NCBI GenBank assembly: GCA_048938855.1
Contig: JBHLLT010000008.1
Span: forward strand, 1 to 56,389
Length of the DNA: 56,389 bases
Direction of reading: 5' to 3'
Origin: Promethearchaeota archaeon
GTDB lineage: Archaea; Asgardarchaeota; Lokiarchaeia; Sigyniarchaeales; SOKP01
In this document: positions 30,066 through 49,131 of the stretch, one piece after another
How the letters are laid out: each line of letters starts with the position of its first letter
Position numbering within the stretch: position 1 is the stretch's first letter
Notes under the pieces: generated by a model
Told to the model about the DNA's origin: nothing
The model's database searches: none
Seen by the model: only the letters and a program-made list of their open reading frames with translations
Translations under genes and position numbers: made by a program

Positions 30066-31535
30066 ATGGTGAAAATTTTTAAAGTCGCTTTAGTAAATCC
30101 TGGACCGGGTGAAATTTTAGAAAAAGGCAGAATTGTAGCAAATGCCGATCATATTTATCCACCTTTGGGCATCTGTTATTTAAGTGCAATATTAAAGAAT
30201 GAGAATTATCATGTTGAATTAATTGACCAAGCAGCTATGGGATTTAGTTTACAACAAATTATAAAATGGATTAAAAAGCAAGATCCTGATGTTTTAGGGT
30301 TTTCTACATTGACTGCTTCTGGATCAGGGATTAGTGCTGCATTAACTTCTTTTGAAGTAAAGAAATGGAATCCAAATATAAAAATTGTGTTTGGAAATCG
30401 ACATGTGAATCATAATGACTATAGGGTTTTAAAAAAGTATCCCGAGATTGATGTTTGTGTAAGGGATGAGGGAGAATTTACCTTTCTTGAATTAGTTAAA
30501 GCTTTGGAAAAAAATCAATCATTGAAAGATATTAAAGGTTTAACCTATAGAGACAATGGAAAGATAAAGAGGAATGAAAAACGTCCTTTGATTAAAGATC
30601 TTGATGCTGTACCTTTTCCAGATAGAAAAGCTTTAAAAATTGAATATACGGGGAGTTTTGGTGGGCTTGAGTTTGCTCCAGAAGGATTTACTTCAATGAT
30701 TTCTTCCCGAGGATGTCCGTATAACTGTACATTTTGCTATGGGAAAAGGACTGTTGGCTTTAGAACTCGTTCTGTTGAAAATATATTGAAAGAAATTCTA
30801 CTCTTAGAAAGTCAAGGATATAAATATCTAAATTTTGTAGATGATAATTTCACGGTATCGAGGAAAAGAGTAATAAAACTTTGTCGATTGATGCAAAAAG
30901 AAAAAGTCGCTTTAGATTGGATATGCGAGGGAAGAGTTAATCAAGTATCTGATGATATGTTAAGGGAAATGCGTAAAGCTCATTGCAGAATTATTTTTTA
31001 TGGGATTGAGAGTGCTAACCAAAGAACTCTTGATTATTACCATAAAAATATAACGCCATCTCAATCAATTCAGGCAGTAAAAAAAACTCGTAAAGCAAAA
31101 ATACCTTTTATTTTAGGCTCGTTTATTGTTGGAGCGCCAGGCGAGACCTATTCAGAGATATATAATACATTGAAATTCGCGCAAAAATTAGATATTGACT
31201 TTCCAGTCTTTAATCTTCTCGGAACAATGCCAGGTACAGATATTTGGGATGAATTGGTTGAAAAAAAAATCCTTGATGAGGATAAATATTGGGAGGAAGG
31301 AGTACATATCTCTGATATTGATCCTAATGGAGTCCCAACTGAAAAAATTTCAAATTTAATTTTAGAAATGTTAAAAAAATTTTTTATGAATCCCAAATAT
31401 ATGATAAAAGCAATATATAGAAATACCACAAGTTCTTACAAATTTTTTTCTATGCTCAAGATCGTTTCCCAGAATGTAAAAAACTTTGAGAATTTCCATG
31501 GAGTAAAATCATTTTGGAATCCAGATAATGTCTAA
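30066..31535 (+). CDS. B12-binding domain radical SAM protein (paralog 1)
   Basis: PPLG, EGE, SSRGCPYNCTFC, FVDDNF, GIES, FIVG.PGE, PGT. Confidence 0.93.
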   Translation: MVKIFKVALVNPGPGEILEKGRIVANADHIYPPLGICYLSAILKNENYHVELIDQAAMGFSLQQIIKWIKKQDPDVLGFSTLTASGSGISAALTSFEVKKWNPNIKIVFGNRHVNHNDYRVLKKYPEIDVCVRDEGEFTFLELVKALEKNQSLKDIKGLTYRDNGKIKRNEKRPLIKDLDAVPFPDRKALKIEYTGSFGGLEFAPEGFTSMISSRGCPYNCTFCYGKRTVGFRTRSVENILKEILLLESQGYKYLNFVDDNFTVSRKRVIKLCRLMQKEKVALDWICEGRVNQVSDDMLREMRKAHCRIIFYGIESANQRTLDYYHKNITPSQSIQAVKKTRKAKIPFILGSFIVGAPGETYSEIYNTLKFAQKLDIDFPVFNLLGTMPGTDIWDELVEKKILDEDKYWEEGVHISDIDPNGVPTEKISNLILEMLKKFFMNPKYMIKAIYRNTTSSYKFFSMLKIVSQNVKNFENFHGVKSFWNPDNV

Positions 31536-31672
31536 CGATATATTTTTTAATAAATGTGTAATCTGACATATTTTATATACATTTCTCAATAATTTTCATT
31601 TAAAAAAAGATTATTAAGACCTATTTCCTAGTGTATAATAATTATAAATTGAATTTATACGAGGGTAATGAA

Positions 31673-31840
31673 ATGAGTGATGTTAAAGATTCAAATGATA
31701 GTATTGTTAATGAATTAAAGATGATCAATAAACGGCTAAATAGAATATATTATTGGCTAGCTGCTTTCATTGTTATTTCTGTATTATTCTATCTATTTGT
31801 ATTTGTCAATATTCAAATTATTCTATCTAGAATTCCATAA
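31673..31840 (+). CDS. Small single-pass membrane protein, 55 aa
   Basis: GAGGGT then ATG at 31673; coiled segment ELKMINKRLNRI followed by a TM helix. Confidence 0.6.
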   Translation: MSDVKDSNDSIVNELKMINKRLNRIYYWLAAFIVISVLFYLFVFVNIQIILSRIP

Positions 31841-31880
31841 TAACTTTACAAGGATAAGGTTCCCTATTCTTGTGAAGTTA

Positions 31881-33344
31881 TTATCCCCAGAATGGTTTCC
31901 AACTGTTCCATAAATCCCAATGTTTAACATTTTTAAAATTTTGTCCTATTGCCATTAATCTATACTTACTCTTTAAGGTTTTAAGAAGTTGCCGATAAAT
32001 ATATCTTGGTCGCCGCATAAATTTTAGGTGAGTTTCTCTTATTCGCATCATCAATTCGCTTAATGGAATAGGAAGGACCGCGGTACCAATCTCCCAACAT
32101 ACTTCGGGATTAATTCTTTTTTCACTTACCATCTGATCCCAAATCCAATTTCCAGGGATTATACCTAAAATATGAAATTGTGGGAAATCAATATCCAATT
32201 TAAGTGAAAAATTTAATGTCTTAATAATTTCCTCACGAGTTTCTATTGGTGCCCCTACTATAAAATTGGCAAGAACCATATCGATTCCAACTTTTTTGGA
32301 ATTTTTTATTGCTTGGTGAACTTGCTTCAAATTAATTTGTTTATTGTACCAATCTAAAATTCTTTGGGATCCACTTTCAACTCCATAACTCAAAATTTTA
32401 CATCCCATTTGTTTCATGGCATTTAATAATTCTATAGAACTTTGAGTAACTCTCCCTTCAGCCATCCAATAGAAATCTAAATGTTCTTTCTTAAGTAAAT
32501 TTGATAGTTTCATTAATCTTTTTCTACTTATCGTAAAATTATCATCAACCCAGAGTAAGTTTTGATAACCTTGGTCTTCAAGAAGAGATAACTCTTCAAC
32601 TATATTTTCTGGAGATCTTGGACGCCAATTACCCCAAAACATAGAACTTGAACAAAATGAGCACTTAAAAGCACACCCTCTCGATGAGGCTGCTGATGTG
32701 AATTTTGCCACTGATAGATCCAATCCTTCTACTTTATTCTTATATTCGACATTCCCTAACAATTTCCTGTTTGGAAACGGTAAACTATCGATATTTTTTA
32801 TAAGAGGTCTATCATCATTTCTAATTATTCTACCGTTTTCCCTATAAGTTAAACCTCTTATATCTTCAAAATTTTTACCTTTCTCTAATTTCTCGGCAAT
32901 TTCTAATAATGTATTTTCTCCTTCGCCTCTTACGCAACCATCAATAAATGGATATTTATTTAAAATCCGGGTATCATTGAAAGTAGCATGATAATTCCCA
33001 AACAAAATTTTTATATTTGGGTTTACTTTTTCTTTGACACTTCTAGCAATATTTGCAGAACTCTTCCCAGTTCCAGCTGTAGTTATCGTTGAGAAACCAA
33101 GAATATCTGGATCTTCCCTTTTTATCCAATTTATTGTTTCTTCATTTGAGAAATCCCTAGCAAATTGATCAAGGATAGATACCTCAAAGTTATTTTCACT
33201 TAGATATGTACCGAGGTATAAGATTCCCATAGGTGGGAATCCATAAAATTCTATTTTCTCTTTGTTAAACTTCTCTGCATCTTTGACAGTTTTACAAAAT
33301 ATTCCTTCTTTAGGGGGTTTTGGAAAAATTAATGATATTTTCAA
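31881..33344 (-). CDS. B12-binding domain radical SAM protein (paralog 2)
   Basis: PPMG, RGEGE, SSRGCAFKCSFC, WVDDNF, GVESG, FIVGAP.E. Confidence 0.93.
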   Translation of the reverse strand: MKISLIFPKPPKEGIFCKTVKDAEKFNKEKIEFYGFPPMGILYLGTYLSENNFEVSILDQFARDFSNEETINWIKREDPDILGFSTITTAGTGKSSANIARSVKEKVNPNIKILFGNYHATFNDTRILNKYPFIDGCVRGEGENTLLEIAEKLEKGKNFEDIRGLTYRENGRIIRNDDRPLIKNIDSLPFPNRKLLGNVEYKNKVEGLDLSVAKFTSAASSRGCAFKCSFCSSSMFWGNWRPRSPENIVEELSLLEDQGYQNLLWVDDNFTISRKRLMKLSNLLKKEHLDFYWMAEGRVTQSSIELLNAMKQMGCKILSYGVESGSQRILDWYNKQINLKQVHQAIKNSKKVGIDMVLANFIVGAPIETREEIIKTLNFSLKLDIDFPQFHILGIIPGNWIWDQMVSEKRINPEVCWEIGTAVLPIPLSELMMRIRETHLKFMRRPRYIYRQLLKTLKSKYRLMAIGQNFKNVKHWDLWNSWKPFWG

Positions 33345-33516: not shown

Positions 33517-34953
33517 ATGAAATTAAATACTACACAAGTTCAAAGAGTAGCCTTAGTTAACCCAAATTTTATTACTAAGAGCATTACTGATAAATTTACG
33601 ATCCCCGCACTAGGTTTAGAATCTATTGCTGCAAATATCATAGATTTAGTTGAAGTTAAAATTATTGATGGAAAGGTTAGAAATTTAACGCTTAATGAAA
33701 TTATAAAAGAAATTAATGAATTCGACCCAGATATAGTTGGAATATCATGCTGTTTCACAATTGGAATTAATTTTGCTTTGAAAATTGCATATGAATCAAA
33801 AAAGTTAGGATATAAAACTATATTAGGAGGTTGGCATCCAAGTTTTGCTCATTCTGAGATAATAAAATACCCTTTTATTGATATTATAGTCCGAGGAGAG
33901 GGAGAATTTACTTTTCGAGAACTTATTGAAAATAAAAACTTGGAAGAAATCAAAGGAATATCCTATAAATATAATGGAGATGTTATTAATAACGCTGAAC
34001 GTCCTTTAATTAAGGATCTAAATAGATTGCCCCTTCCAGCTAGAAAATTGAGAGATACTACGACTTATTTTCAAATATTTCAAATGCCTTTAGATGCAAT
34101 TGAAACCTCAAGGGGTTGCCCTTATAATTGTACATTCTGTAATATACATCTTTTTCATCGAGGAATCTATAGAACAAAGAATACTTTACGAGTTATTCAA
34201 GAGTTAAAAATTATATCCCATCAAAAAAGACGTAAAAATGTACTAATAATAGATGATAATTTCACTGCGAATGTGGAGCGGGTTGAGAAAATTTGTGATG
34301 AGATAATAAAAGAGGGAATTAAGTTAGATTTAATTTGTCAAAGTCGGATTGATGTAATTAAAAACAATCCAAATATAATAAAAAAGATGGCTCAAGCAGG
34401 ATTTTGGTTGTTCTTCCTTGGTATTGAATCATTTAACCAAAAATCATTAAATGATATTCAAAAAAGGATCCAGTTTAGAGATATTGTTGAAGCAATAAAA
34501 ATCCTTCATGAGAACGATATTTTAATAATAGGGAGTATGTTAATTGGTTCAAGTCTGGATGAAGAAGAGAAAGACATAGATCTCATGATTAAGATTGTTA
34601 AAAAATTAGGAATCGATTTTCCTATCTATTCTATTATGACACCATTGCCAGGTACTAAATTTAGAGAGATTTTGATTGACAATGATCTTTTGCTTTCTCG
34701 AGATTGGAGTAAGTACAATTTTACAACAGCAGTTAACCGACTTAATAAACTTTCTAAAGAAAAATTAGAAGAACTATTGTCTAAAGCATATTATTCTGGA
34801 TATTTTAATAGGGGGTGGAAAGATACTCTTATTAGATTATATAAACAGAAAGGTATTCAATTTCTCTTAAATTTTAGGAGAATCTCTAGCATTATTAAAG
34901 ATTTTTTGAATTTTTTCATAAATATTATACGAATGAAAGCTAGTACAAAGTAG
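33517..34953 (+). CDS. B12-binding domain radical SAM protein (paralog 3)
   Basis: PALG, GGWHPS, RGEGE, ETSRGCPYNCTFC, IDDNF, GIES, TPLPGT. Confidence 0.93.
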   Translation: MKLNTTQVQRVALVNPNFITKSITDKFTIPALGLESIAANIIDLVEVKIIDGKVRNLTLNEIIKEINEFDPDIVGISCCFTIGINFALKIAYESKKLGYKTILGGWHPSFAHSEIIKYPFIDIIVRGEGEFTFRELIENKNLEEIKGISYKYNGDVINNAERPLIKDLNRLPLPARKLRDTTTYFQIFQMPLDAIETSRGCPYNCTFCNIHLFHRGIYRTKNTLRVIQELKIISHQKRRKNVLIIDDNFTANVERVEKICDEIIKEGIKLDLICQSRIDVIKNNPNIIKKMAQAGFWLFFLGIESFNQKSLNDIQKRIQFRDIVEAIKILHENDILIIGSMLIGSSLDEEEKDIDLMIKIVKKLGIDFPIYSIMTPLPGTKFREILIDNDLLLSRDWSKYNFTTAVNRLNKLSKEKLEELLSKAYYSGYFNRGWKDTLIRLYKQKGIQFLLNFRRISSIIKDFLNFFINIIRMKASTK

Positions 34954-35698
34954 TTAATTGTTTTAGAGTTATGAATTCAGCCTTTTTATTGAGAGAGTCC
35001 TTGATAAATTTTCTAAGTCTGGTAAGGAAGGAGTTTCCTGTATTAATCCATCGATCTAATCTAAAAAAAAAATTTATGAATAGACTAAAATTTTTTTTTT
35101 GATTGAACATCAAAGTTTTGACATTTATTGCTTCCCATGAATGGAAATATAATGTCATTAATTTCTTTCTTAGAATCCATTTTCTTACCAAATAAAAAAT
35201 TAAAGGTAATCTGAAGAAGACATTAAAACTGGAAGGGTATAATTCTTTAATCTTGTAGTTATTAGGTTGAGAGAATTTAGACCTTTTACTATATTTAATG
35301 GAAGAATCATATTTAAAATTTAAATCCTTCAATATTTGGAATAGAAATCTAGGTGGTTTTAAATATGGAGCTCGAAAACCAATTATTTCTGAATTTTGGG
35401 TTCTATTTTCAATCATTGTTTTGCTCTTCGAGATAATATTTTTACATTGTTCAAATGATAAATTATTTAATCGTTCATGATTTAAACTATGACAAGCAAT
35501 TTCATGTCCTTTACCTTCAATCAAATCCACAATTTGAGGCTGCTTTTCAATAACGCTTCCAGTACAAAAAAAAGTACTTTTGATTTGAAAATCGTCTAAT
35601 ATTTTTAAAATCTTAAACAATCCTATCTTCAAGCCTAAATCAGTATCAAGAAAATTAGGAATATCTCTTTCAATATCAAAAGTTAGAGCAATTTTCAT
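34940..35698 (-). CDS. CE4 polysaccharide deacetylase (NodB/PuuE-like)
   Basis: LTFDIE, STFF, EIACHSLNH, GFRAP, YDSS, YFHSWE; ATG at 35698 preferred over the TTG at 35716. Confidence 0.88.
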   Translation of the reverse strand: MKIALTFDIERDIPNFLDTDLGLKIGLFKILKILDDFQIKSTFFCTGSVIEKQPQIVDLIEGKGHEIACHSLNHERLNNLSFEQCKNIISKSKTMIENRTQNSEIIGFRAPYLKPPRFLFQILKDLNFKYDSSIKYSKRSKFSQPNNYKIKELYPSSFNVFFRLPLIFYLVRKWILRKKLMTLYFHSWEAINVKTLMFNQKKNFSLFINFFFRLDRWINTGNSFLTRLRKFIKDSLNKKAEFITLKQLTTLY

Positions 35699-35789
35699 TA
35701 TCAGATTATTGATCAATTTATTTGTTTAAGAAATTATATATTTATTTTAAAATTTATTTCAATATTTAAGTTCAGATTAAATGTAAAAA

Positions 35790-36908
35790 ATGCGAATTTT
35801 AGTAGTAGGTGCAGGGCTTACAGGCTGTAGTATAGCACGCTTGATGAAAAATAAAGGGCATACTGTTTCAATGATAGAAAAAGAACCTCATATTGGAGGC
35901 TTATGTTATACTGAGACAAGTTCAAATGGTATCATGTACGAGCCTTATGGTGGCCATGCATTTCACACTAAAGATAGTCGTGTAAGAGACTTGGTTCTTG
36001 AATTTTCAGAATTTAATGATTATAGGCATAACAAGGGAATTATAATTAATGGTAAATTGCTACATTTTCCTCTAAGTAAAGAATCTATACTAAAAATGGA
36101 AGATAGTCACCAAATAATTAAAGATCTGGAAAATAAACCTAAAAAACCGGATTTAACTAACTTTGAAACCTATGCAATCTCTCAGTTCGGTGTTACGTTA
36201 TACAAACTATTTATTTATAATTATTCAAAGAAAATGTGGGGTTTAGAACCAAAGGAATTAACAACGGAATATATTAAAAATCGTATTGAACTTAAAAATA
36301 CTAATACTCACATATTTAAAGACAAGTTCCAAGGGTTGCCTGTAAAAGGTTATACAGTTTTACTTCATAACATGATTCATGATATTCCCTTAGAATTAAA
36401 CACAAGTGAATTTGACGATTCGATATACGATCTTATTCTATTTTCAGGAAGAATTGACGAACTACTAAAATTAAATTTTGGAAAATTGGAATTTAGGTCA
36501 CTACTCTATCATAATGTTGAAAATGAATACTGGGAAAATGAAAACTATGGAACAATCAATCTTCCACAAGATCCTAATTATATACGTAAAGTAAATTTTA
36601 AGGTTATGCATCAACAAAAAATTAATGAATCTTTAATCCAATATCAAGAACCTGTACAAGCCAATGGACAACATCCTCCACTATATCCAATATATACTAA
36701 GAGAAATCTTAAATTATTTAATCAGTATTTAGTCGAGGCTTGCAAATCTGAAAACTTTGTTCCTATTGGTCGATTAGGTCTATATAAGTATTTAGAAATG
36801 GGCCAGGCAATTTCTCTGGTTATGAATATGATTCCACTGATAGAAAAATGGAAAATATTAACCCCTGAAGCTCGATATCATGGAATTAAAAATCTACTAA
36901 CCAATTAA
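35790..36908 (+). CDS. glf: UDP-galactopyranose mutase
   Basis: VVGAGLTG FAD motif, IGGLC, YGGHAFHT, YSKKMWG, FQGLP..GYT, YP, GRLGLYKYLEM. Confidence 0.85.
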   Translation: MRILVVGAGLTGCSIARLMKNKGHTVSMIEKEPHIGGLCYTETSSNGIMYEPYGGHAFHTKDSRVRDLVLEFSEFNDYRHNKGIIINGKLLHFPLSKESILKMEDSHQIIKDLENKPKKPDLTNFETYAISQFGVTLYKLFIYNYSKKMWGLEPKELTTEYIKNRIELKNTNTHIFKDKFQGLPVKGYTVLLHNMIHDIPLELNTSEFDDSIYDLILFSGRIDELLKLNFGKLEFRSLLYHNVENEYWENENYGTINLPQDPNYIRKVNFKVMHQQKINESLIQYQEPVQANGQHPPLYPIYTKRNLKLFNQYLVEACKSENFVPIGRLGLYKYLEMGQAISLVMNMIPLIEKWKILTPEARYHGIKNLLTN

Positions 36909-36929: not shown

Positions 36930-37694
36930 CTATTTTTCCCAATTAATATCTTTTGCCAAATTATAAAATATATCCTTTTTCGAACGATATTGAGTAATAC
37001 GCCCTAAGCTACGACGAGTATTTAGAAATCTTCCACTTGTTAATACAGAAACAAAATTGAGTGTCATTATTTTACCTCTTTTCATTTTTCTTGTGAGATA
37101 TATTAATGAATCTGAAAAAACTTTGTCAATTCCTATCAGATTGTGTGGTAGTTGCTTAAATCCACCAACTTTAGAGAAAATGTCCCTTCTAACAATTATA
37201 TTACATCCAATAAGTTCAGGATATCCAAGTAGAGTTTTAAAAAAATAATATACATGCATATTAAAATTAAGAAAAAAATAATGAGTAATTGTAAAATTTT
37301 TAGAACCTAAATTAAATGAGAAAGCCTTTCCATCATAATATTTCACTCTTGCACTACAAGCAAAAAGATTTTTATGCTTTTCGAATATTCTATAAATCTT
37401 TTGCAAGAAGAGAGGATCTATTAAAGTATCAGCATCTAGAAATACTAGTAACTCACCAGAAGTTTTTGGAACTACATAGTTTAATTGAAGAGCTTTTCCT
37501 TTTTCAGGTGAAATATATACTGTCGCAAAATTTTTTGCAATGGTGACAGTATTATCAGCACTATGGCCATCAACTACTATAATTTCATATGGAATATCAC
37601 ATCTTTGCTTTTTAATAGCTAATAATGTACGTTTGATGTTGTTTTCCTCGTTATAAGTAGGGATTATTACCGATATCTTTGGATTGTGATTCAT
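36930..37694 (-). CDS. GT2 glycosyltransferase
   Basis: SVIIPTYNEE, VDGHSAD, FLDADT, G.N...RR..F..VGGF, TSGR. Confidence 0.92.
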   Translation of the reverse strand: MNHNPKISVIIPTYNEENNIKRTLLAIKKQRCDIPYEIIVVDGHSADNTVTIAKNFATVYISPEKGKALQLNYVVPKTSGELLVFLDADTLIDPLFLQKIYRIFEKHKNLFACSARVKYYDGKAFSFNLGSKNFTITHYFFLNFNMHVYYFFKTLLGYPELIGCNIIVRRDIFSKVGGFKQLPHNLIGIDKVFSDSLIYLTRKMKRGKIMTLNFVSVLTSGRFLNTRRSLGRITQYRSKKDIFYNLAKDINWEK

Positions 37695-37808: not shown

Positions 37809-38939
37809 ATGCCGAAAGTCTCAGGTAAAATGAAATTCTTAACAAAGGGATTCATAATTTCATTTCTTTTCTTAATCTTAAGTGCTTCATTAATTATATT
37901 ATTAATTCTAAATCACGTCTTTCTATCGATTCCTTGGATTAATGATTTTTATGAACTTATAAGACCTTGGTTATTAATTTTCTTCTATGATTATAACCTG
38001 TTTATTTATGCTGCAATTTTCATTTGTTATTCTGTTTTACTTGTATTATATGTTTTTGGGTATAATTTAGCAAAAGTAAAACATATGACAGGTTCAATAA
38101 TATTTGTTTTCAGTTTGTTAGGATTCGTTCTAGTTACTTTTATTGCTTCTCAATATTCTTACATAAGCATATTGTTTAACCAAGATATTACACTTAATAC
38201 AAGATTAATGTTACTTTTGTTATTTTTACCTATGAATTTTGCGCTAAGTCTATTTTTATTTTTAGTAAATACAGATTTCCTAATATTTTTAAAGGATTTA
38301 TTGAAGTCTAGAAAAATCTGGAAACGAAGAAGACCCGAATTCGAAATTGAAGTGAAAGGTAAAATTACAAATATAAATATACACACAAAAGAACATATTT
38401 TTACTCCTGTGCCTATGTTGATTATTGCGAAATATCTGCAGTCTAAAGGCTTTTCGGTATCTTGGTTTGTAAGAGGTGCCTTTAATCACTTAATCTCTAT
38501 AATTATTACTTATTTGACTGGGTGGCCGAGGGCTAGAAATATCTTATTTCGATTTACAGGAATGAAAATTGGTAAAAATTGCCATATCTCTCAAAAAGCA
38601 ATACCTGATCCTTTATTACCTGAATTAATTGAATTTGAAGAAGGTAGTGGGTGTGGTATTGGTGTCAAATTACTAACTCATAATGCGATGAATATACAAC
38701 ATGGAAGTTTCAGTTTTGGCCCTATAAAAGTGGGTAAAAATGCTAGAATTGGAGCTTATTCAGTCGTATTACCGGGAGTTACTATAGGAGAGGGTTCTAT
38801 CATAGGTGCAAATTCATTAATTAGTGAAGATATACCACCTTATTCGATAGCATTTGGTTCTCCTGCCAAAGTGATACGTGAATTAACAGATGATGAAAAA
38901 AAAATGGTAAATAAAGAATATGGAGATACTATTGGATAA
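37809..38939 (+). CDS. Membrane-anchored left-handed beta-helix (hexapeptide) acyltransferase
   Basis: About 4 N-terminal TM helices; GMKIGKNCHI, LLTH, PIKVGKNARIGAYSVVLPGVTIGEGSIIGANS, GSPAKVIR. Confidence 0.87.
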   Translation: MPKVSGKMKFLTKGFIISFLFLILSASLIILLILNHVFLSIPWINDFYELIRPWLLIFFYDYNLFIYAAIFICYSVLLVLYVFGYNLAKVKHMTGSIIFVFSLLGFVLVTFIASQYSYISILFNQDITLNTRLMLLLLFLPMNFALSLFLFLVNTDFLIFLKDLLKSRKIWKRRRPEFEIEVKGKITNINIHTKEHIFTPVPMLIIAKYLQSKGFSVSWFVRGAFNHLISIIITYLTGWPRARNILFRFTGMKIGKNCHISQKAIPDPLLPELIEFEEGSGCGIGVKLLTHNAMNIQHGSFSFGPIKVGKNARIGAYSVVLPGVTIGEGSIIGANSLISEDIPPYSIAFGSPAKVIRELTDDEKKMVNKEYGDTIG

Positions 38940-39708
38940 ACTTTTCAATCAATCCATTAACTTTTACACTATTATCATACATTGTTCTGTGTGAACCTTT
39001 ATCAATTATGAATAACTCTGTTTTAGGAATGTAATCATTTAACTCATTAATTGCTGCTTTAGAAACAATCCGGTCTTCACTACCATAAATTAAAATTGTT
39101 GGTTGAGAAATTGCACATAATCCCTCTTTTAATTTATACGTGTACGTCATGTTTTTAAAAGTTTTTAGAACAACAGCTTTAGGTAGTTTTAATGCATTTT
39201 TATATAATTTTTTAAACTCTCTAAATTCCTCTTCAGGGGATATGATTTTTCCAATAATCTTTTTCAGAAGTGCCCTATAAAACATTTTAAATAGAATATT
39301 TATCCAAAAAATCATTATTCTTTCTAATATTGATTGAGGCTTTCCTGAAGTTGAGCTTATAAGGATTAGTTTTTTCACTATTTTTGGCTTTTTAAGCACA
39401 ATGTCTTGTGCTATTAAACCACCTAAAGAATGGCCAATGAGAATGACCTTGTTATATTTAAGCAATTTAAGCAAATCAATTATCTGTTTAGTGTAGAACT
39501 CAATAGTATAATCTTCTCTAGGTTTATCTGATTTTCCAAAACCGGGTAAATCAAGTAAAATAATATGATTCTTAAGATTAAAATGATATAATTGATATTT
39601 CCATTCAAGAGAACTTCCTAACCATCCATGAATGAATACAAGGGGTATTCCTTCTAATTTATTATCATAATAAAAGATTTTGAGGTGATTTATATTGATA
39701 AGCGGCAT
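38929..39708 (-). CDS. Alpha/beta hydrolase
   Basis: FIHGW, DLPGFG.S, GHSLGG, GSEDRIV, GSH catalytic triad. Confidence 0.9.
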   Translation of the reverse strand: MPLININHLKIFYYDNKLEGIPLVFIHGWLGSSLEWKYQLYHFNLKNHIILLDLPGFGKSDKPREDYTIEFYTKQIIDLLKLLKYNKVILIGHSLGGLIAQDIVLKKPKIVKKLILISSTSGKPQSILERIMIFWINILFKMFYRALLKKIIGKIISPEEEFREFKKLYKNALKLPKAVVLKTFKNMTYTYKLKEGLCAISQPTILIYGSEDRIVSKAAINELNDYIPKTELFIIDKGSHRTMYDNSVKVNGLIEKFIQ

Positions 39709-40755: not shown

Positions 40756-40816
40756 TTCAATTTCATGATGATTTAAACAGAACAAAACATTTTAAATATT
40801 TATTTAATATTTAATT

Positions 40817-41842
40817 TTGGTATTAAACATATTGACGATTTCAACTTCAAATCCAGTATCCATTGTCGTTCCCATAAAGAACAGACGTGATCTTTTACCT
40901 AACCTAATTAAGAATCTATCTAATATTGATTACAACGAATATGAAATAATAATTGTTGATGATTGTTCAACGGATAATACAAAGGATCTATTAAAACAAT
41001 ATTCAATTAAATCCATACTTTTAGAAAGATCAGTAGGATCTGCAGAAGCTAGAAACCTTGGAATTAAACAAGCAAAAAATGAAATTATTGCACTAACTGA
41101 TTCTGATTGCTTTGTTTCAAGAAATTGGTTGAAAAATCTAGTACCATATCTTAACTCCTATGATGTGGTTGGGGGAAGAGTTATATTTTGTGATGATGCG
41201 GAAAAAAAAATTAATCCTTTCAATACAAAAGAAGAAACAGTATTAAAGAAGGATACTTCGATTAATTTTCTTAATACAAGTAATATGTTATTTAAAAAAA
41301 AAACATGGAAGTCCTCTGGTGGTTTTCTAAGCTATAGGATTGAAGATTTGGAGTTTTCATGGAGATTATTAAATAAAGGCTTTAAGTTAATTTATTCTCC
41401 TAAAGGTTTTGTAATTCATCATGGTAATAGGACACCTATCCAAAATATTAAGAAATATTTCCTATATGGAAAGTCATATTCGAAAATAGCTTTTATTCAT
41501 AAAATGAGTTTCACATTTAAAACAGATCGAATTCTTGATAAAAGTAATCTTTTTGATTATCTAAAACTAATATCACTTCCCTTTCTTTTACTATTGGCTT
41601 CAATTCTTTCGGGTTTTATAATTTTTAATATCTATTTAAATATGTCTGCAAGTTTTCTTTCAATAACAATATGTTTTCTCCTTCTATTCCGACTCATAAG
41701 AAGAATTGATATTTTATTCAAAATCTATAAAACGACTATAATATTTGGAATTGTAAATTATTCGATAATATATATGTTTAAGAAGAAATACAACTTAGGG
41801 AGAAATAAGAATAAAGCATATGATTTAAAGTTGAAATCTTGA
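40817..41842 (+). CDS. GT2 glycosyltransferase with C-terminal TM helices
   Basis: SIVVP.KNR, VDDCSTD, ARN.G, TDSDC, EDLEFSWR. Confidence 0.9.
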   Translation: MVLNILTISTSNPVSIVVPIKNRRDLLPNLIKNLSNIDYNEYEIIIVDDCSTDNTKDLLKQYSIKSILLERSVGSAEARNLGIKQAKNEIIALTDSDCFVSRNWLKNLVPYLNSYDVVGGRVIFCDDAEKKINPFNTKEETVLKKDTSINFLNTSNMLFKKKTWKSSGGFLSYRIEDLEFSWRLLNKGFKLIYSPKGFVIHHGNRTPIQNIKKYFLYGKSYSKIAFIHKMSFTFKTDRILDKSNLFDYLKLISLPFLLLLASILSGFIIFNIYLNMSASFLSITICFLLLFRLIRRIDILFKIYKTTIIFGIVNYSIIYMFKKKYNLGRNKNKAYDLKLKS

Positions 41843-42946
41843 CTTTATTTCTTCTGTAATATCAGAAATATCTGAACATTCCTGATCAGAGAAATTTGGA
41901 TAATAATAAGTGGGTTTATGCAAATTTCTACAATAGTGTTTCTTGAATACTGTGAATTTTTCTGTAGATAATTCCGTGTGATCGAGTATTTTATCTATTA
42001 CAATTTCTGGAGTCTCACATAACTCATCATACCTAATTATAAGGGTTGCTTTTTTTAAGTTCTTATTAGTTTCAATTTGATCTGCAATAAAATTATAGAT
42101 CGATGCCCAATAGTGTGCCCAACCTTTTACATAGGTTTTTTTTTTTCTCCATAATTTATGAATCTCATTAATTAAATCTGTATTACCCACATTGATGCAG
42201 ATTTGATTGCGACCAAATTCATTATGGCCTACTATTTTCAACCAATCGGGTAGTAGAGGATTTTCTTGTTCTAGTATTCTAAAGAGTTTTGATTGTTTTA
42301 TCATTGAAGCAATATGCTCTTCAGGGTTACGAATAATCAAGAGAATCTTAGAATCTGGGAAAATTTTCAGCAAGTAATCCAATCTGCTAACAAGATAATT
42401 ATTTTTTGCTAAATACCTTTGACATTTCTGATTTATTATTAATTTTTTCAAATGAGTTTTATAGAATTTCTCAAATTTTGGATTTGAATCACTTTTAGTG
42501 AGGATATTGGGAACATTTTCATTATGTAGATTTTTAAAAAATTTTAACCAAAATGCCTCTTCAACCGCTTCAGGACTTTCACGGTTAACGAAAATACCAT
42601 CTCTATGGAGTCTTTCAAAAGGTTGTTTATAAAAATTGAACTTTTTAGCCATTTCGCTAAACCAATCGGGAAGATATGGCATAAGAACATTTTGATATTT
42701 ATGCGACGCTAAATCTGGATGTTTATCTAACATTTCTAAAATAATTGTTGTTCCTGCACGAGCAAGACCGGTTATATAAATAGGTCTGTCAATATTTATC
42801 TTTTTTATATCTCTATGCATAAAAATCGTTTCAATTTTGTCAAGCAATAAGGAGATTGATTTAAATGAACTAAAAAATTTAGTTATTCCGTATCCAGCAT
42901 AACTCGTGAGTGGAAATTTATGTGAATTTTGATCATTAGATTTCAA
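41825..42946 (-). CDS. PAPS-dependent sulfotransferase
   Basis: PIYITGLARAGTT (5'-PSB), KNN, IRNPEEHIAS (3'-PB), RYDEL; GGAGA before the TTG start. Confidence 0.9.
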   Translation of the reverse strand: MKSNDQNSHKFPLTSYAGYGITKFFSSFKSISLLLDKIETIFMHRDIKKINIDRPIYITGLARAGTTIILEMLDKHPDLASHKYQNVLMPYLPDWFSEMAKKFNFYKQPFERLHRDGIFVNRESPEAVEEAFWLKFFKNLHNENVPNILTKSDSNPKFEKFYKTHLKKLIINQKCQRYLAKNNYLVSRLDYLLKIFPDSKILLIIRNPEEHIASMIKQSKLFRILEQENPLLPDWLKIVGHNEFGRNQICINVGNTDLINEIHKLWRKKKTYVKGWAHYWASIYNFIADQIETNKNLKKATLIIRYDELCETPEIVIDKILDHTELSTEKFTVFKKHYCRNLHKPTYYYPNFSDQECSDISDITEEIKSRFQL

Positions 42947-43195: not shown

Positions 43196-44047
43196 ATGTT
43201 TAAAATTAAATCTGATTCTTGGCAAAGTAAAATTATTATCCTTGCTGTCTTTATTATCGTAATCATTCTGACAGCAGAAGTAGATTGGGCCGCAGAAAAC
43301 TCCGGGGTAGGACTTATGACTCGACTTTTTTGGTTAATTAGTTTACTAATTTTAGGACTAGTTTTACCAATTGGATTTATGTATCTTGCTGGTAATAAAG
43401 AAATAGAAAGAGGCGAATCTGACAAAAAAGGGTTAATTATTGCGATAGTCCTATTTTTGATTGCTAATGGGATCCCAATTATCTTTTATGTTGTTCTTGG
43501 AACTCCACCTGGTCCTTTATTATATCTACAATTATCACTATTTGGTTTAATCCCTGCTTTTTTTCTACAACCAAAAAGAAAACAATATAGAATCCTTATA
43601 CTAGTAATTCTATTTGCAGTAATTATTATCCCTATTGGTATTCTTGTGAATTTTGCCATTGATGATCTATGGGCAGGTGCACTTGATAACACGATGTATT
43701 ACTTATCTTTTTGGGGACTTTTGATGACATTCTTTTATCTTATTCTTGCTATTGGCTGGAAATTGGGTGGTGGATCTAAAAGACAAAGTTGGAACATTTT
43801 TCTAGCGGGAACACTATTACAATTTAGTACACTTGAAGATTTCTTTTATTTTCTACTAAATGGGCAATCACTTCCGGGATTATGGCCTTGGATGAATAAT
43901 TTTGTAATTAATCTTGAAGTTTTGTTTGGTCACATTCCAACTGATTTAGATCTTCTTGTTTTTTGTTTAATAACAAGCGCTATAGCGATCCTTATCCTTT
44001 TTGATATTCATGGAATTATCTGGACAAAAATCAAGGAAAAAAAATAA
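43196..44047 (+). CDS. Multi-pass membrane protein of unknown function
   Basis: About 8 hydrophobic helices; LEDFFYF..W.W motif. Confidence 0.75.
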   Translation: MFKIKSDSWQSKIIILAVFIIVIILTAEVDWAAENSGVGLMTRLFWLISLLILGLVLPIGFMYLAGNKEIERGESDKKGLIIAIVLFLIANGIPIIFYVVLGTPPGPLLYLQLSLFGLIPAFFLQPKRKQYRILILVILFAVIIIPIGILVNFAIDDLWAGALDNTMYYLSFWGLLMTFFYLILAIGWKLGGGSKRQSWNIFLAGTLLQFSTLEDFFYFLLNGQSLPGLWPWMNNFVINLEVLFGHIPTDLDLLVFCLITSAIAILILFDIHGIIWTKIKEKK

Positions 44048-44074: not shown

Positions 44075-44578
44075 TTAATAAATCAAAGTAAGTCCAATTA
44101 TTAAGAATATTGAATTTAATACAAGTCCTGCAATTCCCAAACCCTTTCCTGCCTTCAATACCCCAGTTTCTGGTTCAAATCCACTAGCTGTATTACTATT
44201 TACTATAGAAACTATTCCAAATATTATACCTATAACACGAGCAACACTAAGACCTATACGTATTCCATATAAATAATATATTGGCAAACCATATCCAATT
44301 TGGAGTGTAACTAATGCAATAATTAAAGAGATAATACCAAAAGCTAAAGAAATCTTTGAATGCTTGCCCGGTTCTGACCCCTTTTGAAACTTAGAGGGGT
44401 ATTGCGGTACTGGGATACGGGTAGTTGGTGTGGTTGGCTGCTGTACCCCGTATGTTGGTTGTTGTACTCTATATGTTGGTTGTGGTGGTTCAGGTTCCTT
44501 TATAATTTCAGATCCGCAGTTCTGGCAAAACCTTTGATTTTCACTTTCTAATTTTACGCCACAATTTTGACAAAACAT
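44075..44578 (-). CDS. Zinc-ribbon + Pro/Thr-rich linker + 3-TM protein (paralog A)
   Basis: MFCQNCG...FCQNCG, QPTY repeats, hydrophobic C-terminus; ATG 44578 chosen by alignment to paralog B. Confidence 0.85.
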   Translation of the reverse strand: MFCQNCGVKLESENQRFCQNCGSEIIKEPEPPQPTYRVQQPTYGVQQPTTPTTRIPVPQYPSKFQKGSEPGKHSKISLAFGIISLIIALVTLQIGYGLPIYYLYGIRIGLSVARVIGIIFGIVSIVNSNTASGFEPETGVLKAGKGLGIAGLVLNSIFLIIGLTLIY

Positions 44579-44782
44579 AATACGACCTTCAAAAGTCTTG
44601 ATATTCATATCATATATGTTTATTAAATATAATTATAGTATTAAAAATAAATACTTGCTATACATATAGAATATTTCAAAATTTCTTCATGGAATGTTTA
44701 TTAGTTTTAATAAATCCAGTTTATTATAGATGAACAACAATTTTCTTTTATTTTTGTAAAATATTCATTCAAAAATTTTTCT

Positions 44783-45280
44783 CTAAATCCTAGTAAGTGC
44801 AAATACAAGAAATATTGCATTTATTATAAGTCCTATAATACCTAAAGCATTTCCTGCTTTTAAAATAGAGGTTTCTGGTTCCACTCCTTTTGCTTTCCCG
44901 CTATTTACTACAGATACAATTCCAAATATTATGCCTATGCCACGAGCGATAGCAAGGCCTACATATATTCTAGGCACATAATAAAATCCCATGCTATATC
45001 CAAATTGGAGTGAAAATAATCCAATAATTAAAGAGACAATACCAAAACCTAAAGCTATTTTTGAATATTTTCCTGGTATACCCCCTGTTTTAAACTTAGA
45101 GGGATATTGTGGGACTGGTATTGGGGTCGTTGAGGTTGGTGTGGTTGTTGGTGCAGTTACTTGTCCTACTCCAAAGGTTGTTTTCGGTGGTTCAGAAACA
45201 TCTATAATTTCGCTTCCACAATTTTGACAAAACCTTTGATTTTCCATTTCTAATTCTGCACCACAGTTTTGACAAAACAT
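44783..45280 (-). CDS. Zinc-ribbon + Pro/Thr-rich linker + 3-TM protein (paralog B)
   Basis: MFCQNCG...FCQNCGSEII; PVPQYPSKF and GIIFGIVS.VNS shared with paralog A. Confidence 0.87.
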   Translation of the reverse strand: MFCQNCGAELEMENQRFCQNCGSEIIDVSEPPKTTFGVGQVTAPTTTPTSTTPIPVPQYPSKFKTGGIPGKYSKIALGFGIVSLIIGLFSLQFGYSMGFYYVPRIYVGLAIARGIGIIFGIVSVVNSGKAKGVEPETSILKAGNALGIIGLIINAIFLVFALTRI

Positions 45281-45413: not shown

Positions 45414-46715
45414 CTAATAAACCCAATTAATTATTGAAGAGCAACTTTTACCTTGAGCGTTCTTTAATCGTCCCAAAACCCTAAAAGCAGCACCTTCATA
45501 TCCACATTCGGGACATTTACTTTCTGTGATGAGCTCTACAATATCATCTACCAAAACAGCTTGATTTATACTTCCATTCACCCCATAGGGTGTGATTACT
45601 TCGAGTAAACCTTCCATCCCTTTACTAACAGGATCTAATGTGTCTAAATCTCTTACTATAATTCGTGAAGTATTAGGACAATGTAATATAAAATCTTGGT
45701 ATTTCTCGGACCAATGCCCTCCAAAAAGTGTGGGGCCTTCTGTAAATGCGTAAATATCCGCTATATCCTTAGGTTTGATATTAAATACTTTTTCATAACA
45801 TTCAATAAATCTACTTTTATCCACTTCACCCATCTTAGCTTCACCCTTGACACCGTCCCATCCTCCGCCCCCACAACCAACAAAGGAAATCCCATCAAGA
45901 TCGTTGTAAATATTTTCTTTTAGCAATCTCTTCTCAAACATATTATTCATTAAAAGAGCACTTCCGCCAAAAATTATTTTACTTACTTCAATATCCTTCC
46001 AATAACCTGTATCTTTAACTTGTTTAATCATTTTTAGCATTTTAGAAACATCTAAAATAAATCCCCCTTTTAATGATAGAGTTGAAATAATTGCCCATAT
46101 TGTTTTTAAAACTTTCATTTTTACCAGATATTCCTCATGTCCATAATATTCCCAAGGTTTATTCATACATGCTGTAAAATAACGTGTTTTTTCGATATAC
46201 GCAAATCCCTTTGCACTTCTTTTAGCCATTACCGTCATAAATAAACGATCCGGCGAGAAATTAAATACAAGGCATCTTTTGGCATCAATATTTAATTCTC
46301 TCCATCCAAAAAATTCAGAAAATACTTTAATAGAATTGTATTGTAATTGATCAAAATCATCTAAAGTTCGTGGAACTATCGATGGATCTCCAGTTGTAGA
46401 AGAAGAACACGAATAGAGAGCGATATTTTCATGAGGAACTTTTAATAAGTTTAATGTCCGATTTCCTGATTTTTTATATATATCTGAAGGAATAAAAGGA
46501 ATGTGCTCTAGATCCTCAATAGATAATTCATCAGGAATTTTAAAATCAAATTTACTACATAAATTATCTTTGTAATATTTACAGTTTTTAAACGATAAAC
46601 TAATTTGTTGTAGTAAATCCTTGCAAAATACATCATCTGGGTAATTACGAAATTCAAAATCAAAATATTTCTTTTTTAATTCTTCAGGTAAGTGATCATG
46701 AAACTTAAGGAACAA
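45414..46715 (-). CDS. LuxE-like acyl-protein synthetase (ANL adenylating fold)
   Basis: IPFIPSDIYK, SCSSSTTGDPS P-loop, GGGGWDG, DIYAFTE, EGLLEV, LVDD, FRVLGR....GKSCS (LuxE C-terminal Cys); GGAG before the TTG start. Confidence 0.8.
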   Translation of the reverse strand: MFLKFHDHLPEELKKKYFDFEFRNYPDDVFCKDLLQQISLSFKNCKYYKDNLCSKFDFKIPDELSIEDLEHIPFIPSDIYKKSGNRTLNLLKVPHENIALYSCSSSTTGDPSIVPRTLDDFDQLQYNSIKVFSEFFGWRELNIDAKRCLVFNFSPDRLFMTVMAKRSAKGFAYIEKTRYFTACMNKPWEYYGHEEYLVKMKVLKTIWAIISTLSLKGGFILDVSKMLKMIKQVKDTGYWKDIEVSKIIFGGSALLMNNMFEKRLLKENIYNDLDGISFVGCGGGGWDGVKGEAKMGEVDKSRFIECYEKVFNIKPKDIADIYAFTEGPTLFGGHWSEKYQDFILHCPNTSRIIVRDLDTLDPVSKGMEGLLEVITPYGVNGSINQAVLVDDIVELITESKCPECGYEGAAFRVLGRLKNAQGKSCSSIINWVY

Positions 46716-46812
46716 TGTAGGTTTCTCCTAAATAATGATTATATCTCATAATTCATAATCATTTAAGATTGATATGCAAATAAATGTAGAATAAAAAATT
46801 ATAAAAAAATTA

Positions 46813-48165
46813 TTAAATATTTGAAAGAGCCATTATTTCTGCTTCTTCTCGCTCCAATAACATTGGAGTTTTCTCCCAACTTATTTCTTTTGGAAGTTTA
46901 AATTGCCGTAAAAACATATAAAGATGTATAAAACCACTTATTGGCCAATAAAATATAAGACTGAAATGTTTATCACAATATTTTCTTATAGTATTGAATA
47001 AGAAGCCAAATTGAAAGAAAATACAAGATAATGTCCAGAATAGTAAATAATATTCACCAAAAACAAACTGAAATATTGCAAATGCAATTTCGATTGGTAA
47101 CCAAGTATCCATATTTGCTAAAACCATCATGGTCATATTTCTTGCAATTATTAGTTTTTTCCCATCTTTATATTCGCTTTTCATGCTCATTAATGTTGGC
47201 ATATCTCCGGTAAATCCTGCTAACCACCGTGTGCGTTGTTTTACTAAAATCTCCCAACTATTGGGAACATACTCATAGATTTTAGCTTTTGGGGAAAATT
47301 TAATTAATACACCATCTAAATTTAAAAGTGCTGAAAGATAAAGATCTTCTGTCATTGAATTTTCATTAAAACCCCCATACTTCTTAAGATATTTTGTTCT
47401 CACCGCAAAATTTCGTCCAAATGAATAAGCAGAAGATCCCAATCTATTTTTAACTTCAAATAATAATCCCCCACCAGAAACCATACCATAATCCAAAAAA
47501 ATTCCCCTAGTCAGACTATTATCTTTCCAGTTTTTAACAAGAACAGGGCCAATAACAGCATCAATCTTTTCGCGATGAAAGGCAGAAATTAAGTTTTTAA
47601 GAGTATTAGATTTTAATATACACCCCGAATCGTATAGAACAACAATATCATTTTTTACATGTTCCAAACCATAATTTAGCGCTGCAGGTTTTCCTTTTTT
47701 AGGTAAGTCTTTTGATAATACCATTATGTCTATGTTACTATTTTCTCTAGCAAAATGATTTGAAAATTCCGTAGTATCATCCGTAGACCCACTAGTTATT
47801 ACTATTATTTGGATCTTTTCTTTAGGATAATCAGATTCAACAATAGAATTTAATGTTCTCTCTAATAGTACTTTCTCATTTTTGGAGGCAATAAGAATAC
47901 TAATAGCTTCATAATATGGTGTTTTCGGTTTATAGCCACTTCCAAAAGAGGCTATGAAATGAATTCCATAATATAGAATTAATCCTAATAACATTAATAG
48001 CCCAATTAATGGAAAGATAAACCACCAATAAGTTAAAGGATCTAGGATAAATGTATCAATTGCTTCTTTTACTCCAGAAGACCAAAATGGTGGAAAATAC
48101 ATATGCATTACAATAAATAACACTAACCAAACAGAACCATATAATAAATATCTATAAAGTTTCAT
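46813..48165 (-). CDS. Membrane GT2, cellulose-synthase-like (QxxRW) family
   Basis: N- and C-terminal TMs, GKPAALN.G, TEDL, QRTRW, WEKT. Confidence 0.9.
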   Translation of the reverse strand: MKLYRYLLYGSVWLVLFIVMHMYFPPFWSSGVKEAIDTFILDPLTYWWFIFPLIGLLMLLGLILYYGIHFIASFGSGYKPKTPYYEAISILIASKNEKVLLERTLNSIVESDYPKEKIQIIVITSGSTDDTTEFSNHFARENSNIDIMVLSKDLPKKGKPAALNYGLEHVKNDIVVLYDSGCILKSNTLKNLISAFHREKIDAVIGPVLVKNWKDNSLTRGIFLDYGMVSGGGLLFEVKNRLGSSAYSFGRNFAVRTKYLKKYGGFNENSMTEDLYLSALLNLDGVLIKFSPKAKIYEYVPNSWEILVKQRTRWLAGFTGDMPTLMSMKSEYKDGKKLIIARNMTMMVLANMDTWLPIEIAFAIFQFVFGEYYLLFWTLSCIFFQFGFLFNTIRKYCDKHFSLIFYWPISGFIHLYMFLRQFKLPKEISWEKTPMLLEREEAEIMALSNI

Positions 48166-48192
48166 TTTTTCAATCTCCTTTTTTGAATATTA

Positions 48193-49131
48193 TTACTTAT
48201 TTATGTTATCGATCTTCTTTAAGTTCTTCCATATATACTTTCCAAAAAGAATTATAGAAAGCACCATAATAACTAATAAAGTAATTTGGTATATGAACAT
48301 AGTCCATGTGATTATCCAAGTGTGCGAAGCATTCCAGATTGTAGCAGAAGGGTTAATCATATTAGTTATTAATGTAGCAATACTTGACACCCCATACATT
48401 ACAAAAAAAGTAGTTTGAACAATAACACGTGTTATTCTCTCACCAATGAAAGGTTTCGTTTCACTCAACCCCAAACCTTCATGTCTTGCTCTCATATACT
48501 CATAAATGAATATAAGGTATATATTTGTCCATACTAACCATGTAAAATCAAGTCCATATGTCGATAAAATCAACATACTTGTAGGTATTAAACCAACGAG
48601 CATTAAAATATCACTAACCCGATCTATCACATTATCAAACCAAGCACCAGTTTTTGATTTAATATCAAGTAGTCTCGCTATTGCTCCATCAATTCCATCA
48701 ATTATTCCTGTAAATAATACTAGTAATCCAAGTACGAAAAACCAGGATCCATATAATGGTTGCACGGTAATCGGGTCAAGTGAATGTCCCACACTAGCCA
48801 CTATAACACCCCAGAATATGAGAATTGATAGAACTAAATTCAGAATTGTAACTTTATTCGGACTTACTCCCATTTTTATAAAAAGTTTTGCTCCTGCATA
48901 TGTTATTGGCATGTATAACTTTCCTGCAGGATCTTTTTTCATTTGTGCAAATTGTTCATCTAATTTATGAGCTTGTCCATGATCCTTGAGCCAATCTTTT
49001 ATGAATTCATCACAAGTCATAAATTCTTGTTTTGGTCTTCTTTTTGGTATCCCACTAAGTAGAATAATGACTATAATTACAACTAAAATTAAAGGAAACA
49101 CTACTGTAAATAATAAAGCATATAATGTCAT
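48193..49131 (-). CDS. CDP-alcohol phosphatidyltransferase family (archaetidyl headgroup synthase-like)
   Basis: SPNKVT, DGIDGAIAR....SKTGAWFDNVIDR signature, YMRAR.E, GER. Confidence 0.9.
   Translation of the reverse strand: MTLYALLFTVVFPLILVVIIVIILLSGIPKRRPKQEFMTCDEFIKDWLKDHGQAHKLDEQFAQMKKDPAGKLYMPITYAGAKLFIKMGVSPNKVTILNLVLSILIFWGVIVASVGHSLDPITVQPLYGSWFFVLGLLVLFTGIIDGIDGAIARLLDIKSKTGAWFDNVIDRVSDILMLVGLIPTSMLILSTYGLDFTWLVWTNIYLIFIYEYMRARHEGLGLSETKPFIGERITRVIVQTTFFVMYGVSSIATLITNMINPSATIWNASHTWIITWTMFIYQITLLVIMVLSIILFGKYIWKNLKKIDNINK

Follow-up and report, generated by a model that had tools for sequence, protein, structure and literature searches.

What does a lokiarchaeon build with a run of genes that sets a CDP-alcohol phosphotransferase beside a membrane-integrated glycosyltransferase, surrounds the pair with enzymes of deacetylation, acylation, sulfation and radical chemistry, and is missing outright from close relatives in its own genus? 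The question is posed by a 56,389-nucleotide stretch of DNA (the window; contig JBHLLT010000008.1 of assembly GCA_048938855.1) from a 3.95-Mb metagenome-assembled genome (MAG) of Promethearchaeota (Lokiarchaeia), in which a block of about 20 kb (positions 30066-50175 in window numbering, used throughout) holds 18 open reading frames (ORFs) separated by short spacers or joined by small overlaps. The genomes, loci and families compared with it carry labels beginning with G, L and f, respectively. We regard it as an evenly balanced proposition that this island makes one membrane-anchored, tailored glycoconjugate (a phosphoglycolipid, a lipid-primed glycan or something between the two), for which a dedicated phospholipid acceptor would be glycosylated by its large family 2 glycosyltransferase (GT2), here called GT2c. 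The observations from which the proposal starts are domains, catalytic motifs, the fold of that GT2, an insertion/deletion and conserved gene linkage, and from these we infer all substrates and products.

An original prediction, drawn from the sequence without database searches, had listed three B12-binding radical S-adenosylmethionine (SAM) enzymes, a Twitch-like radical SAM enzyme, a carbohydrate esterase family 4 (CE4) deacetylase, a mutase, three GT2s, a left-handed beta-helix (LbH) acyltransferase, an alpha/beta hydrolase, a sulfotransferase, a LuxE-like enzyme and the CDP-alcohol phosphotransferase. Family searches of the window's proteins with Pfam, together with motifs, recover every one of these at the coordinates given below, and catalytic motifs are complete wherever they can be read in the island proteins. 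When all were scored against NCBIfam, no island protein reached an equivalog cut-off, and for that reason all gene names used here stand at family level only.

A block gained and lost within a genus

In three block-less genomes of the same genus, the genes that flank the island, a short-chain dehydrogenase/reductase (SDR; 29060-29935) on the left and an MSMEG_0568-type radical SAM gene (50218-51351) on the right, lie next to each other with gaps of only 139, 391 and 68 nt, and therefore everything between 29935 and 50218 is an insertion or deletion. It has been acquired or lost as one unit within the genus and is accessory: some Lokiarchaeia carry this biosynthetic island and their close relatives do not. 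GT2c is carried by 26 of 53 genomes of the genus and by 58 of 134 of the family, and the GC content of the island does not differ from that of its flanks. Among the genomes sampled the cluster is largely confined to Lokiarchaeia, all named GT2c homologs coming from Asgard MAGs.

Linkage kept across families

The company that GT2c keeps was surveyed with phmmer at 27 loci, and the counts that follow are lower bounds, many contigs ending within the locus. Beyond the genus these loci come from families f3, f4, f5, f6 and f7, from other genera of f1 and from one genome of another class (f19). A CDP-alcohol transferase gene stands directly upstream of GT2c, in the same direction, at 25 of the 27 (in f1, f3, f4, f6 and f7, and in f19), and we refer to the two as the anchor pair. 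Class-B (B12-binding) radical SAM genes are linked to GT2c at 21 loci, the LuxE-like gene at 19, the small glycosyltransferase GT2a at 16 (other families and the other class included), the membrane LbH gene at 15 and the CE4 gene at 11. The order of these partners is shuffled from locus to locus, yet linkage is kept across families and into another class, a pattern characteristic of genes that work as a unit. The genome of that other class, G149, carries a run of eight co-directional genes (a small transmembrane (TM) protein, a B12 radical SAM enzyme, an FrhB-like protein, a radical SAM enzyme, the CDP-alcohol transferase, GT2c, GT2a and CE4), followed by two further radical SAM genes and an LbH gene. 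The FrhB/FdhB-like Fe-S protein of this run (L043, G149:C60, 8960-10066) is possibly an electron donor for the radical SAM enzymes.

Within the genus two arrangements occur. Variant A is the window's own layout; variant B is without radical SAM no. 1, the hydrolase, the Twitch-like radical SAM enzyme and the second glycosyltransferase GT2b, and in most genomes has a second LuxE paralog. GT2c itself may be multiplied, with two adjacent copies at L037 (G166:C139, 11225-13949) and three at L051 (G281:C47, 2023-9063), where the CDP-alcohol transferase gene lies between one copy and the remaining two.

Might all this be no more than unrelated genes brought together by chance in a variable region? 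Strands alternate almost gene by gene in the window, so that the island is not one transcript here, and the failure of every island protein to reach an equivalog cut-off is what such a jumble would give. Coincidence is very improbable, because linkage survives shuffling in no fewer than six families and two classes and because the block is gained or lost as a whole. The original prediction had the genes acting as one unit, and both the whole-block gain and loss and the core linkage across families and another class bear this out; a synteny check for orthologs scattered without linkage found linkage conserved. The same prediction had included sulfate and, as a possibility, galactofuranose (Galf) among the steps of the pathway, and here it reached too far, for neither is core: the mutase is linked to GT2c at 8 of the 27 loci, all in this genus, and the sulfotransferase at 10, all in this genus and one neighbouring genus.

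An anchor pair of phosphotransferase and synthase-type GT2

GT2c (46813-48165, minus strand; Pfam Glyco_tranf_2_3, 109 bits) is a membrane-integrated, synthase-type GT2, in which two TM helices at the N-terminus precede a GT-A domain and a helical bundle forms the C-terminus, and its D179, TED (273-275) and QRTRW (309-313) motifs are invariant in 19 homologs. An AlphaFold2 (AF2) model with a pLDDT of 90.7 matches BcsA (VIA Z 27.2), PcManGT (26.1), Cv-HAS (25.6) and Chs1 (23.7) over 320-370 residues, the TM region included, whereas soluble GT2 domains reach only Z ~19. As modelled, then, GT2c has the complete membrane-synthase fold of BcsA, hyaluronan synthase and PcManGT. It falls below the NCBIfam equivalog cut-offs of PgaC, its best match (102.5 bits against 422), of NodC, a weaker one (45.1 against 550), and of HpnI (32.2 against 310). 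No fused CDP-OH/GT2 protein or longer form of GT2c was found at 789 aa or above, which is weak evidence.

The fold bears on what the island lacks. Pfam finds no Wzx, Wzy, ABC transporter or STT3/AglB domain in 30066-50175, as had been predicted (an eight-TM protein there has no family), and the genome's only STT3 match lies on another contig (C34:398120). From this lack it had been concluded that the island does not look like a standard polysaccharide locus, a step that fails: the fold of GT2c, with TED and QRTRW, is of the exporter-independent synthase type, and because that full cellulose/hyaluronan-synthase fold is present, missing Wzx/Wzy does not exclude a polymer. Synthase-type GT2s need no separate exporter. 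We take PcManGT to mean that a synthase fold alone is no proof of a polymeric product.

The other half of the pair, a divergent CDP-alcohol phosphotransferase (48193-49131, minus strand), scores 36.7 bits against the Pfam CDP-OH_P_transf cut-off of 22 and has the complete signature D(x)2DG(x)2AR(x)8G(x)3D(x)3D at residues 144-172, features that assign it by sequence to the PF01066 family; it adds an extra N-terminal TM helix and an amphipathic segment. Of the five such paralogs that the genome encodes it lies furthest from archaetidylinositol-phosphate (AIP) synthase, scoring 61.6 bits against the NF040950 cut-off of 180, where three of the others reach 130-154. What alcohol might it use? An inositol or GPI-like head group was considered and is unlikely, because myo-inositol-phosphate synthase (MIPS; PF07994) had no real match in 41 genomes of the order (this one and 40 relatives), control genomes being matched. 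As for the donor, no nucleotidyltransferase domain occurs among the Pfam matches of the window's island genes or of the scanned G149 genes, so that the enzyme probably draws on the cell's own CDP-archaeol.

Probable tailoring on the cytoplasmic face

Around the anchor pair stand the enzymes that would decorate its product. The predicted CE4 de-N-acetylase (34940-35716, minus strand; Pfam Polysacc_deac_1, 72 bits), in which the motifs TFD..E, HSLNH and RAPY can be read, scores 53 bits against the NodB cut-off of 240 and has no HpnK match in NCBIfam. Like the sulfotransferase, the LuxE-like enzyme and the radical SAM enzymes, it has neither a TM helix nor a signal peptide and would be cytoplasmic. 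The LbH O-acetyltransferase (37809-38939, plus strand; Hexapep domain at residues 305-338) begins with four TM helices, and because a K/R-rich stretch follows them its LbH domain is taken to be cytoplasmic and tethered to the membrane. GT2a (36930-37694, minus strand; Glycos_transf_2, 106 bits; DAD motif) is a small soluble GT2 whose best sequence match in the PDB, 5hea GalT1 at 42 bits, is a generic family match. Topologies and cofactors together fit a membrane-bound pathway working at the cytoplasmic face.

The remaining core partner, the LuxE-like enzyme (45414-46715, minus strand; Pfam LuxE, 89 bits against a cut-off of 25), keeps its SSS(T/S)xG adenylation motif in 24 of 24 homologs of both paralog classes, and the Cys of its C-terminal G(K/R)xC(S/T) is invariant in all 23 homologs that have a C-terminus present; these motifs fit a mechanism passing from acyl-AMP to acyl-Cys. 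No LuxC domain was found in the window with Pfam or NCBIfam, which leaves a lux-type role unsupported, and a PDB sequence search with the protein gave generic family matches only. In most loci the LuxE and GT2c genes are adjoined by tandem paralogs built of a zinc ribbon, a Pro-Thr-rich linker and three TM helices, two of them in the window (44075-45280, minus strand; Zn_Ribbon_1) and up to four in L084 (18150-21000).

These tailoring genes raise the rival that the glycan is not lipid-anchored at all, being a secreted or wall poly- or oligosaccharide after the logic of PNAG/Ica or Nod factors, or an S-layer protein glycan, with the CDP-alcohol enzyme merely adding a phospho-alcohol. GT2c has the full BcsA/HAS/chitin-synthase fold with its motifs and matches PgaC best and NodC more weakly; the combination of CE4, LbH, sulfotransferase and acyl activation resembles decoration by NodB, NodL, NodH and NodA, the CE4 enzyme matching NodB at 53 bits; and surface-glycan loci typically vary in presence among members of one genus. 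Against this, the CE4 enzyme appears cytoplasmic, unlike PgaB/IcaB; no cytidylyltransferase that could supply any CDP-alcohol donor besides CDP-archaeol is among the scanned island genes; AglB is encoded on a different contig, and the island holds no Dol-P flippase or NodIJ-type exporter. The two or three tandem copies of GT2c in some genomes fit stepwise addition of sugars better than a single polymerase, and a role in decoration does not explain the constant adjacency of the CDP-alcohol transferase and GT2c. Taken together, we hold a glycan without a lipid anchor to be unlikely, if a contender to be reckoned with.

Class-B radical SAM enzymes

Three class-B radical SAM enzymes, each with Pfam B12-binding and Radical_SAM domains, open the island: no. 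1 (30066-31535, plus strand), found in variant A only; no. 2 (31881-33344, minus strand), found in variants A and B, with orthologs 75-90% identical in eight genomes of the genus; and no. 3 (33517-34953, plus strand). Nos. 1 and 2 are 47% identical to each other and, with the cluster copies of other families, form one clade (SH-aLRT 99), whereas no. 3, about 32-33% identical to no. 2, falls in a separate clade (SH-aLRT 100). Against the HpnJ, BchE and PhpK models the enzymes score 145-200 bits, far under the cut-offs. The best NCBIfam match of no. 1 is HpnJ (TIGR03471; 199 bits against 578); nos. 2 and 3 score 185 and 183 bits against BchE (TIGR02026; cut-off 481), about level with their HpnJ scores. 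TIGR04190, tried as a proxy for the GDGT (glycerol dialkyl glycerol tetraether) ring synthase, had no match in the Sulfolobus acidocaldarius control and so is not a Grs model, and a PDB sequence search with no. 1 gave generic family matches only.

The closest non-Asgard relatives of the cluster clade are found in Bathyarchaeia (L058-L074, L078), 42-50% identical to no. 1, and they nest inside the Asgard cluster-linked clade. There they stand alone, with no conserved neighbours and no CDP-alcohol transferase/GT2 pair nearby, and distant GT2c-like genes in the same genomes have no CDP-alcohol transferase alongside. Their nesting suggests transfer between phyla or a shared substrate, and because they are standalone, without the pair, the substrate of these enzymes may be a general archaeal lipid rather than the glycoconjugate of the cluster.

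From here it is a short way to a second rival: that two functions merely share a location, the class-B enzymes tailoring core lipids (by methylation, desaturation or ring formation) in the manner of Grs, Gmm, Cgm/Pgm and Ted, and the sugar genes making a simple glycolipid head group. The Bathyarchaeia homologs, nested in the cluster-linked clade yet without conserved neighbours, are what such a division would give, and further standalone copies occur at several Promethearchaeota loci (L076, L080-L085); B12 radical SAM enzymes are, moreover, known archaeal core-lipid tailoring enzymes (10.1101/2025.10.20.683597). We nonetheless find the division improbable: within the genus the radical SAM genes are gained and lost with the GT2/CDP-alcohol transferase pair, in G149 they share one co-directional run with it, and inside the cluster they have multiplied, G189, L084 and L086 each having three in tandem.

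The spacer between radical SAM genes 1 and 2 (31536-31880, 345 nt) holds a 69-aa ORF with a hydrophobic tail. The ORF, and with it a membrane peptide of 55 aa considered for this spacer, is probably not a gene: the gap is only 7-42 nt in G007, G003 and G011, and the 345-nt spacer is specific to the window genome.

A new combination of familiar parts

No characterised system matches the cluster, which is a new combination of known kinds of enzyme, and the systems that come nearest each share a different part of it. In mycobacterial phosphatidylinositol (PI) and PI mannosides (PIM), and in eukaryotic and archaeal GlcN-PI of the GPI type, a CDP-alcohol transferase makes a phospholipid whose head group is then glycosylated, de-N-acetylated and acylated. 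Those systems employ GT4 and LmbE enzymes where the island has GT2 and CE4, and no MIPS was found in the 41 genomes covered of the island's order.

The pneumococcal type 3 synthase Cps3S, a processive GT2, uses phosphatidylglycerol to prime its polymer and needs no Wzx/Wzy or ABC exporter (PMC12220298); by analogy it directly foreshadows a synthase-type GT2 that is primed by a phospholipid. Shared with it are the membrane synthase-fold GT2 and, as proposed, a glycerophospholipid acceptor that is the product of a CDP-alcohol phosphatidyltransferase. The island differs in encoding a dedicated, divergent CDP-alcohol transferase beside the GT2, cytoplasmic tailoring enzymes and radical SAM enzymes, and in the archaeal ether lipid to be expected.

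The hopanoid side-chain module of HpnI (a GT2), HpnK (a deacetylase) and HpnJ (a B12 radical SAM enzyme), considered together with the calditol synthase Cds, follows a scheme of GlcNAc transfer onto a lipid, deacetylation and ring contraction by radical SAM chemistry to a cyclitol head group (PMC13459092). The island repeats the logic of glycosyltransferase, deacetylase and radical SAM enzyme, and HpnJ is the top match of radical SAM no. 1. Its scores stay well short of HpnJ (199 against 578) and HpnI (32 against 310), its deacetylase is a CE4, and hopanoid genes are absent. The class-B radical SAM architecture is likewise shared, in an archaeon, with GrsA/B, Gmm, Cgm/Pgm and Ted, which were compared by architecture and among which standalone genes are common; Ted homologs have 500 aa or more (10.1101/2025.10.20.683597), against 478-489 aa for the island enzymes. 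The parallels that the original prediction drew with GrsA/B and with HpnH/I/J/K are best read as analogies only, HpnJ, HpnI and BchE scores being far below cut-off.

Nod-factor and poly-N-acetylglucosamine (PNAG) synthesis, finally, share with the island a synthase GT2, CE4, acylation, sulfation and O-acetylation by an LbH enzyme, the tailoring apparently cytoplasmic as it is for the Nod enzymes. The island is without NodA and without export of the NodIJ or PgaA type, and all scores lie below cut-off; conversely, its CDP-alcohol transferase and B12 radical SAM enzymes occur in neither system.

Proposed pathway

How might these parts work in sequence? In the pathway that we favour, the CDP-alcohol phosphotransferase would first join CDP-archaeol to a non-inositol alcohol, giving a dedicated phospholipid acceptor. 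To judge from fold and context, GT2c, assisted by GT2a, would then glycosylate this acceptor on the cytoplasmic side with a single sugar or several, drawn from UDP-sugars and including an N-acetyl-hexosamine, and the TM domain of GT2c may itself serve as the passage for the product, so accounting for the missing Wzx/Wzy and ABC components. Next, the CE4 enzyme would strip an N-acetyl group, one or more LuxE-like enzymes would activate a carboxylic acid by way of acyl-AMP and acyl-Cys, probably re-acylating the freed amine, and the membrane-tethered LbH enzyme would O-acetylate. One to four class-B radical SAM enzymes would act on unactivated carbons, either in the lipid tails or in the sugar. 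In this genus only, extension with a furanose (by way of the mutase) and sulfation (by the sulfotransferase) would complete the product.

A more specific form of this proposal can be imagined, which we consider doubtful: an ether phospholipid with an amino sugar that is de-N-acetylated and re-acylated by LuxE-type chemistry or, alternatively, one whose sugar ring is contracted by an HpnJ-like B12 radical SAM enzyme to an aminocyclitol head group. The re-acylated form, if true, would give archaea an equivalent of lipid A, Nod-factor or GPI chemistry in which isoprenoid and acyl (possibly fatty) chains are mixed; the aminocyclitol form, if true, would be comparable to calditol or to the cyclitol ether of bacteriohopanetetrol (BHT).

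Several points weigh against a single lipid-anchored glycoconjugate. Synthase-type GT2s usually extrude their polymer during synthesis, which fits poorly with cytoplasmic tailoring of a chain, and enzymes of the CDP-alcohol family may also move phospho-alcohols to non-lipid acceptors. Two divergent GT2c homologs (in G164 and G169) have no neighbouring CDP-alcohol transferase, and to these are added the alternating strands of the window and the standalone Bathyarchaeia radical SAM enzymes with the general lipid substrate that they may imply.

Accessory and neighbouring genes

The accessory genes of the island lie for the most part in its middle. The mutase (35790-36908, plus strand) carries the Pfam domains GLF (129 bits) and NAD_binding_8, an FAD Rossmann domain (58 bits), and scores 228 bits against the TIGR00031 cut-off of 304; by these matches it is a pyranose/furanose mutase of the GLF family, its sugar not certain. 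The alpha/beta hydrolase (38929-39708, minus strand; Abhydrolase_1, 107 bits) has a GHSLGG nucleophile elbow, and the Twitch/SPASM-like radical SAM enzyme (39724-40785, minus strand) a CxxxCxxC motif at residues 48-55 and C-terminal Cys residues at 275, 293, 325, 327 and 331. GT2b (40817-41842, plus strand; Glycos_transf_2, 110 bits), with C-terminal TM helices at residues 251-301, is MftF-like at 132 bits against a cut-off of 280. The sulfotransferase (41825-42946, minus strand; Sulfotransfer_3, 71 bits), present in 10 of 24 genomes of the genus, has the AGTT and RNP motifs of an enzyme using 3'-phosphoadenosine-5'-phosphosulfate (PAPS), a donor that should be available because the genome has a gene for an adenosine-5'-phosphosulfate (APS) kinase at another site.

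The eight-TM protein mentioned above (43196-44047, plus strand) has no Pfam or NCBIfam match, gave only sub-threshold hits in the ESM Atlas and was modelled by AF2 with a pLDDT of 48.5. It is kept within the island in relatives, at 72-92% conservation, and is possibly a flippase or polymerase. A DUF996-like membrane protein with a C-terminal zinc ribbon (49381-50175, plus strand; Pfam) is a frequent edge gene, lying between the CDP-alcohol transferase and the right flank in most loci of the genus and missing there in G012 and G004.

Outside the island, the SDR and the MSMEG_0568-type radical SAM gene, whose product scores 279 bits against a family cut-off of 304, form a conserved pair of their own, distinct from it. 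The large subunit of a B12-dependent acyl-CoA mutase, a small B12 subunit and MeaB are encoded at 25814-28889, directly left of an island itself rich in B12 enzymes, and this set is also found in island-less genomes. On the right, the MSMEG_0568-type gene is adjoined by one for a START/Bet v 1-like (Polyketide_cyc2) protein (51552-51965). Asgard START proteins, one of which transfers phospholipids, have been described in a 2026 preprint (10.1101/2025.05.16.653879).

Implications for Asgard envelopes

Asgard polar lipids and surface glycans are almost unknown, and they bear on how Asgard cells make contact with partners and on the debate over the membrane transition in eukaryogenesis. The island is a well-defined candidate source of Asgard envelope chemistry not described before, offering a testable set of genes with natural pairs of presence and absence within one genus, and its minimal core, a CDP-alcohol transferase and a synthase-fold GT2, is expressible in existing archaeal lipid chassis. 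This would be the first CDP-alcohol phosphotransferase genetically coupled to a GT2 of the cellulose/hyaluronan-synthase fold. The island also adds a clade of class-B radical SAM enzymes, one that includes Bathyarchaeia homologs, as candidate tailoring enzymes of archaeal lipids or glycans, with relevance to the lipid biomarkers of sediments.

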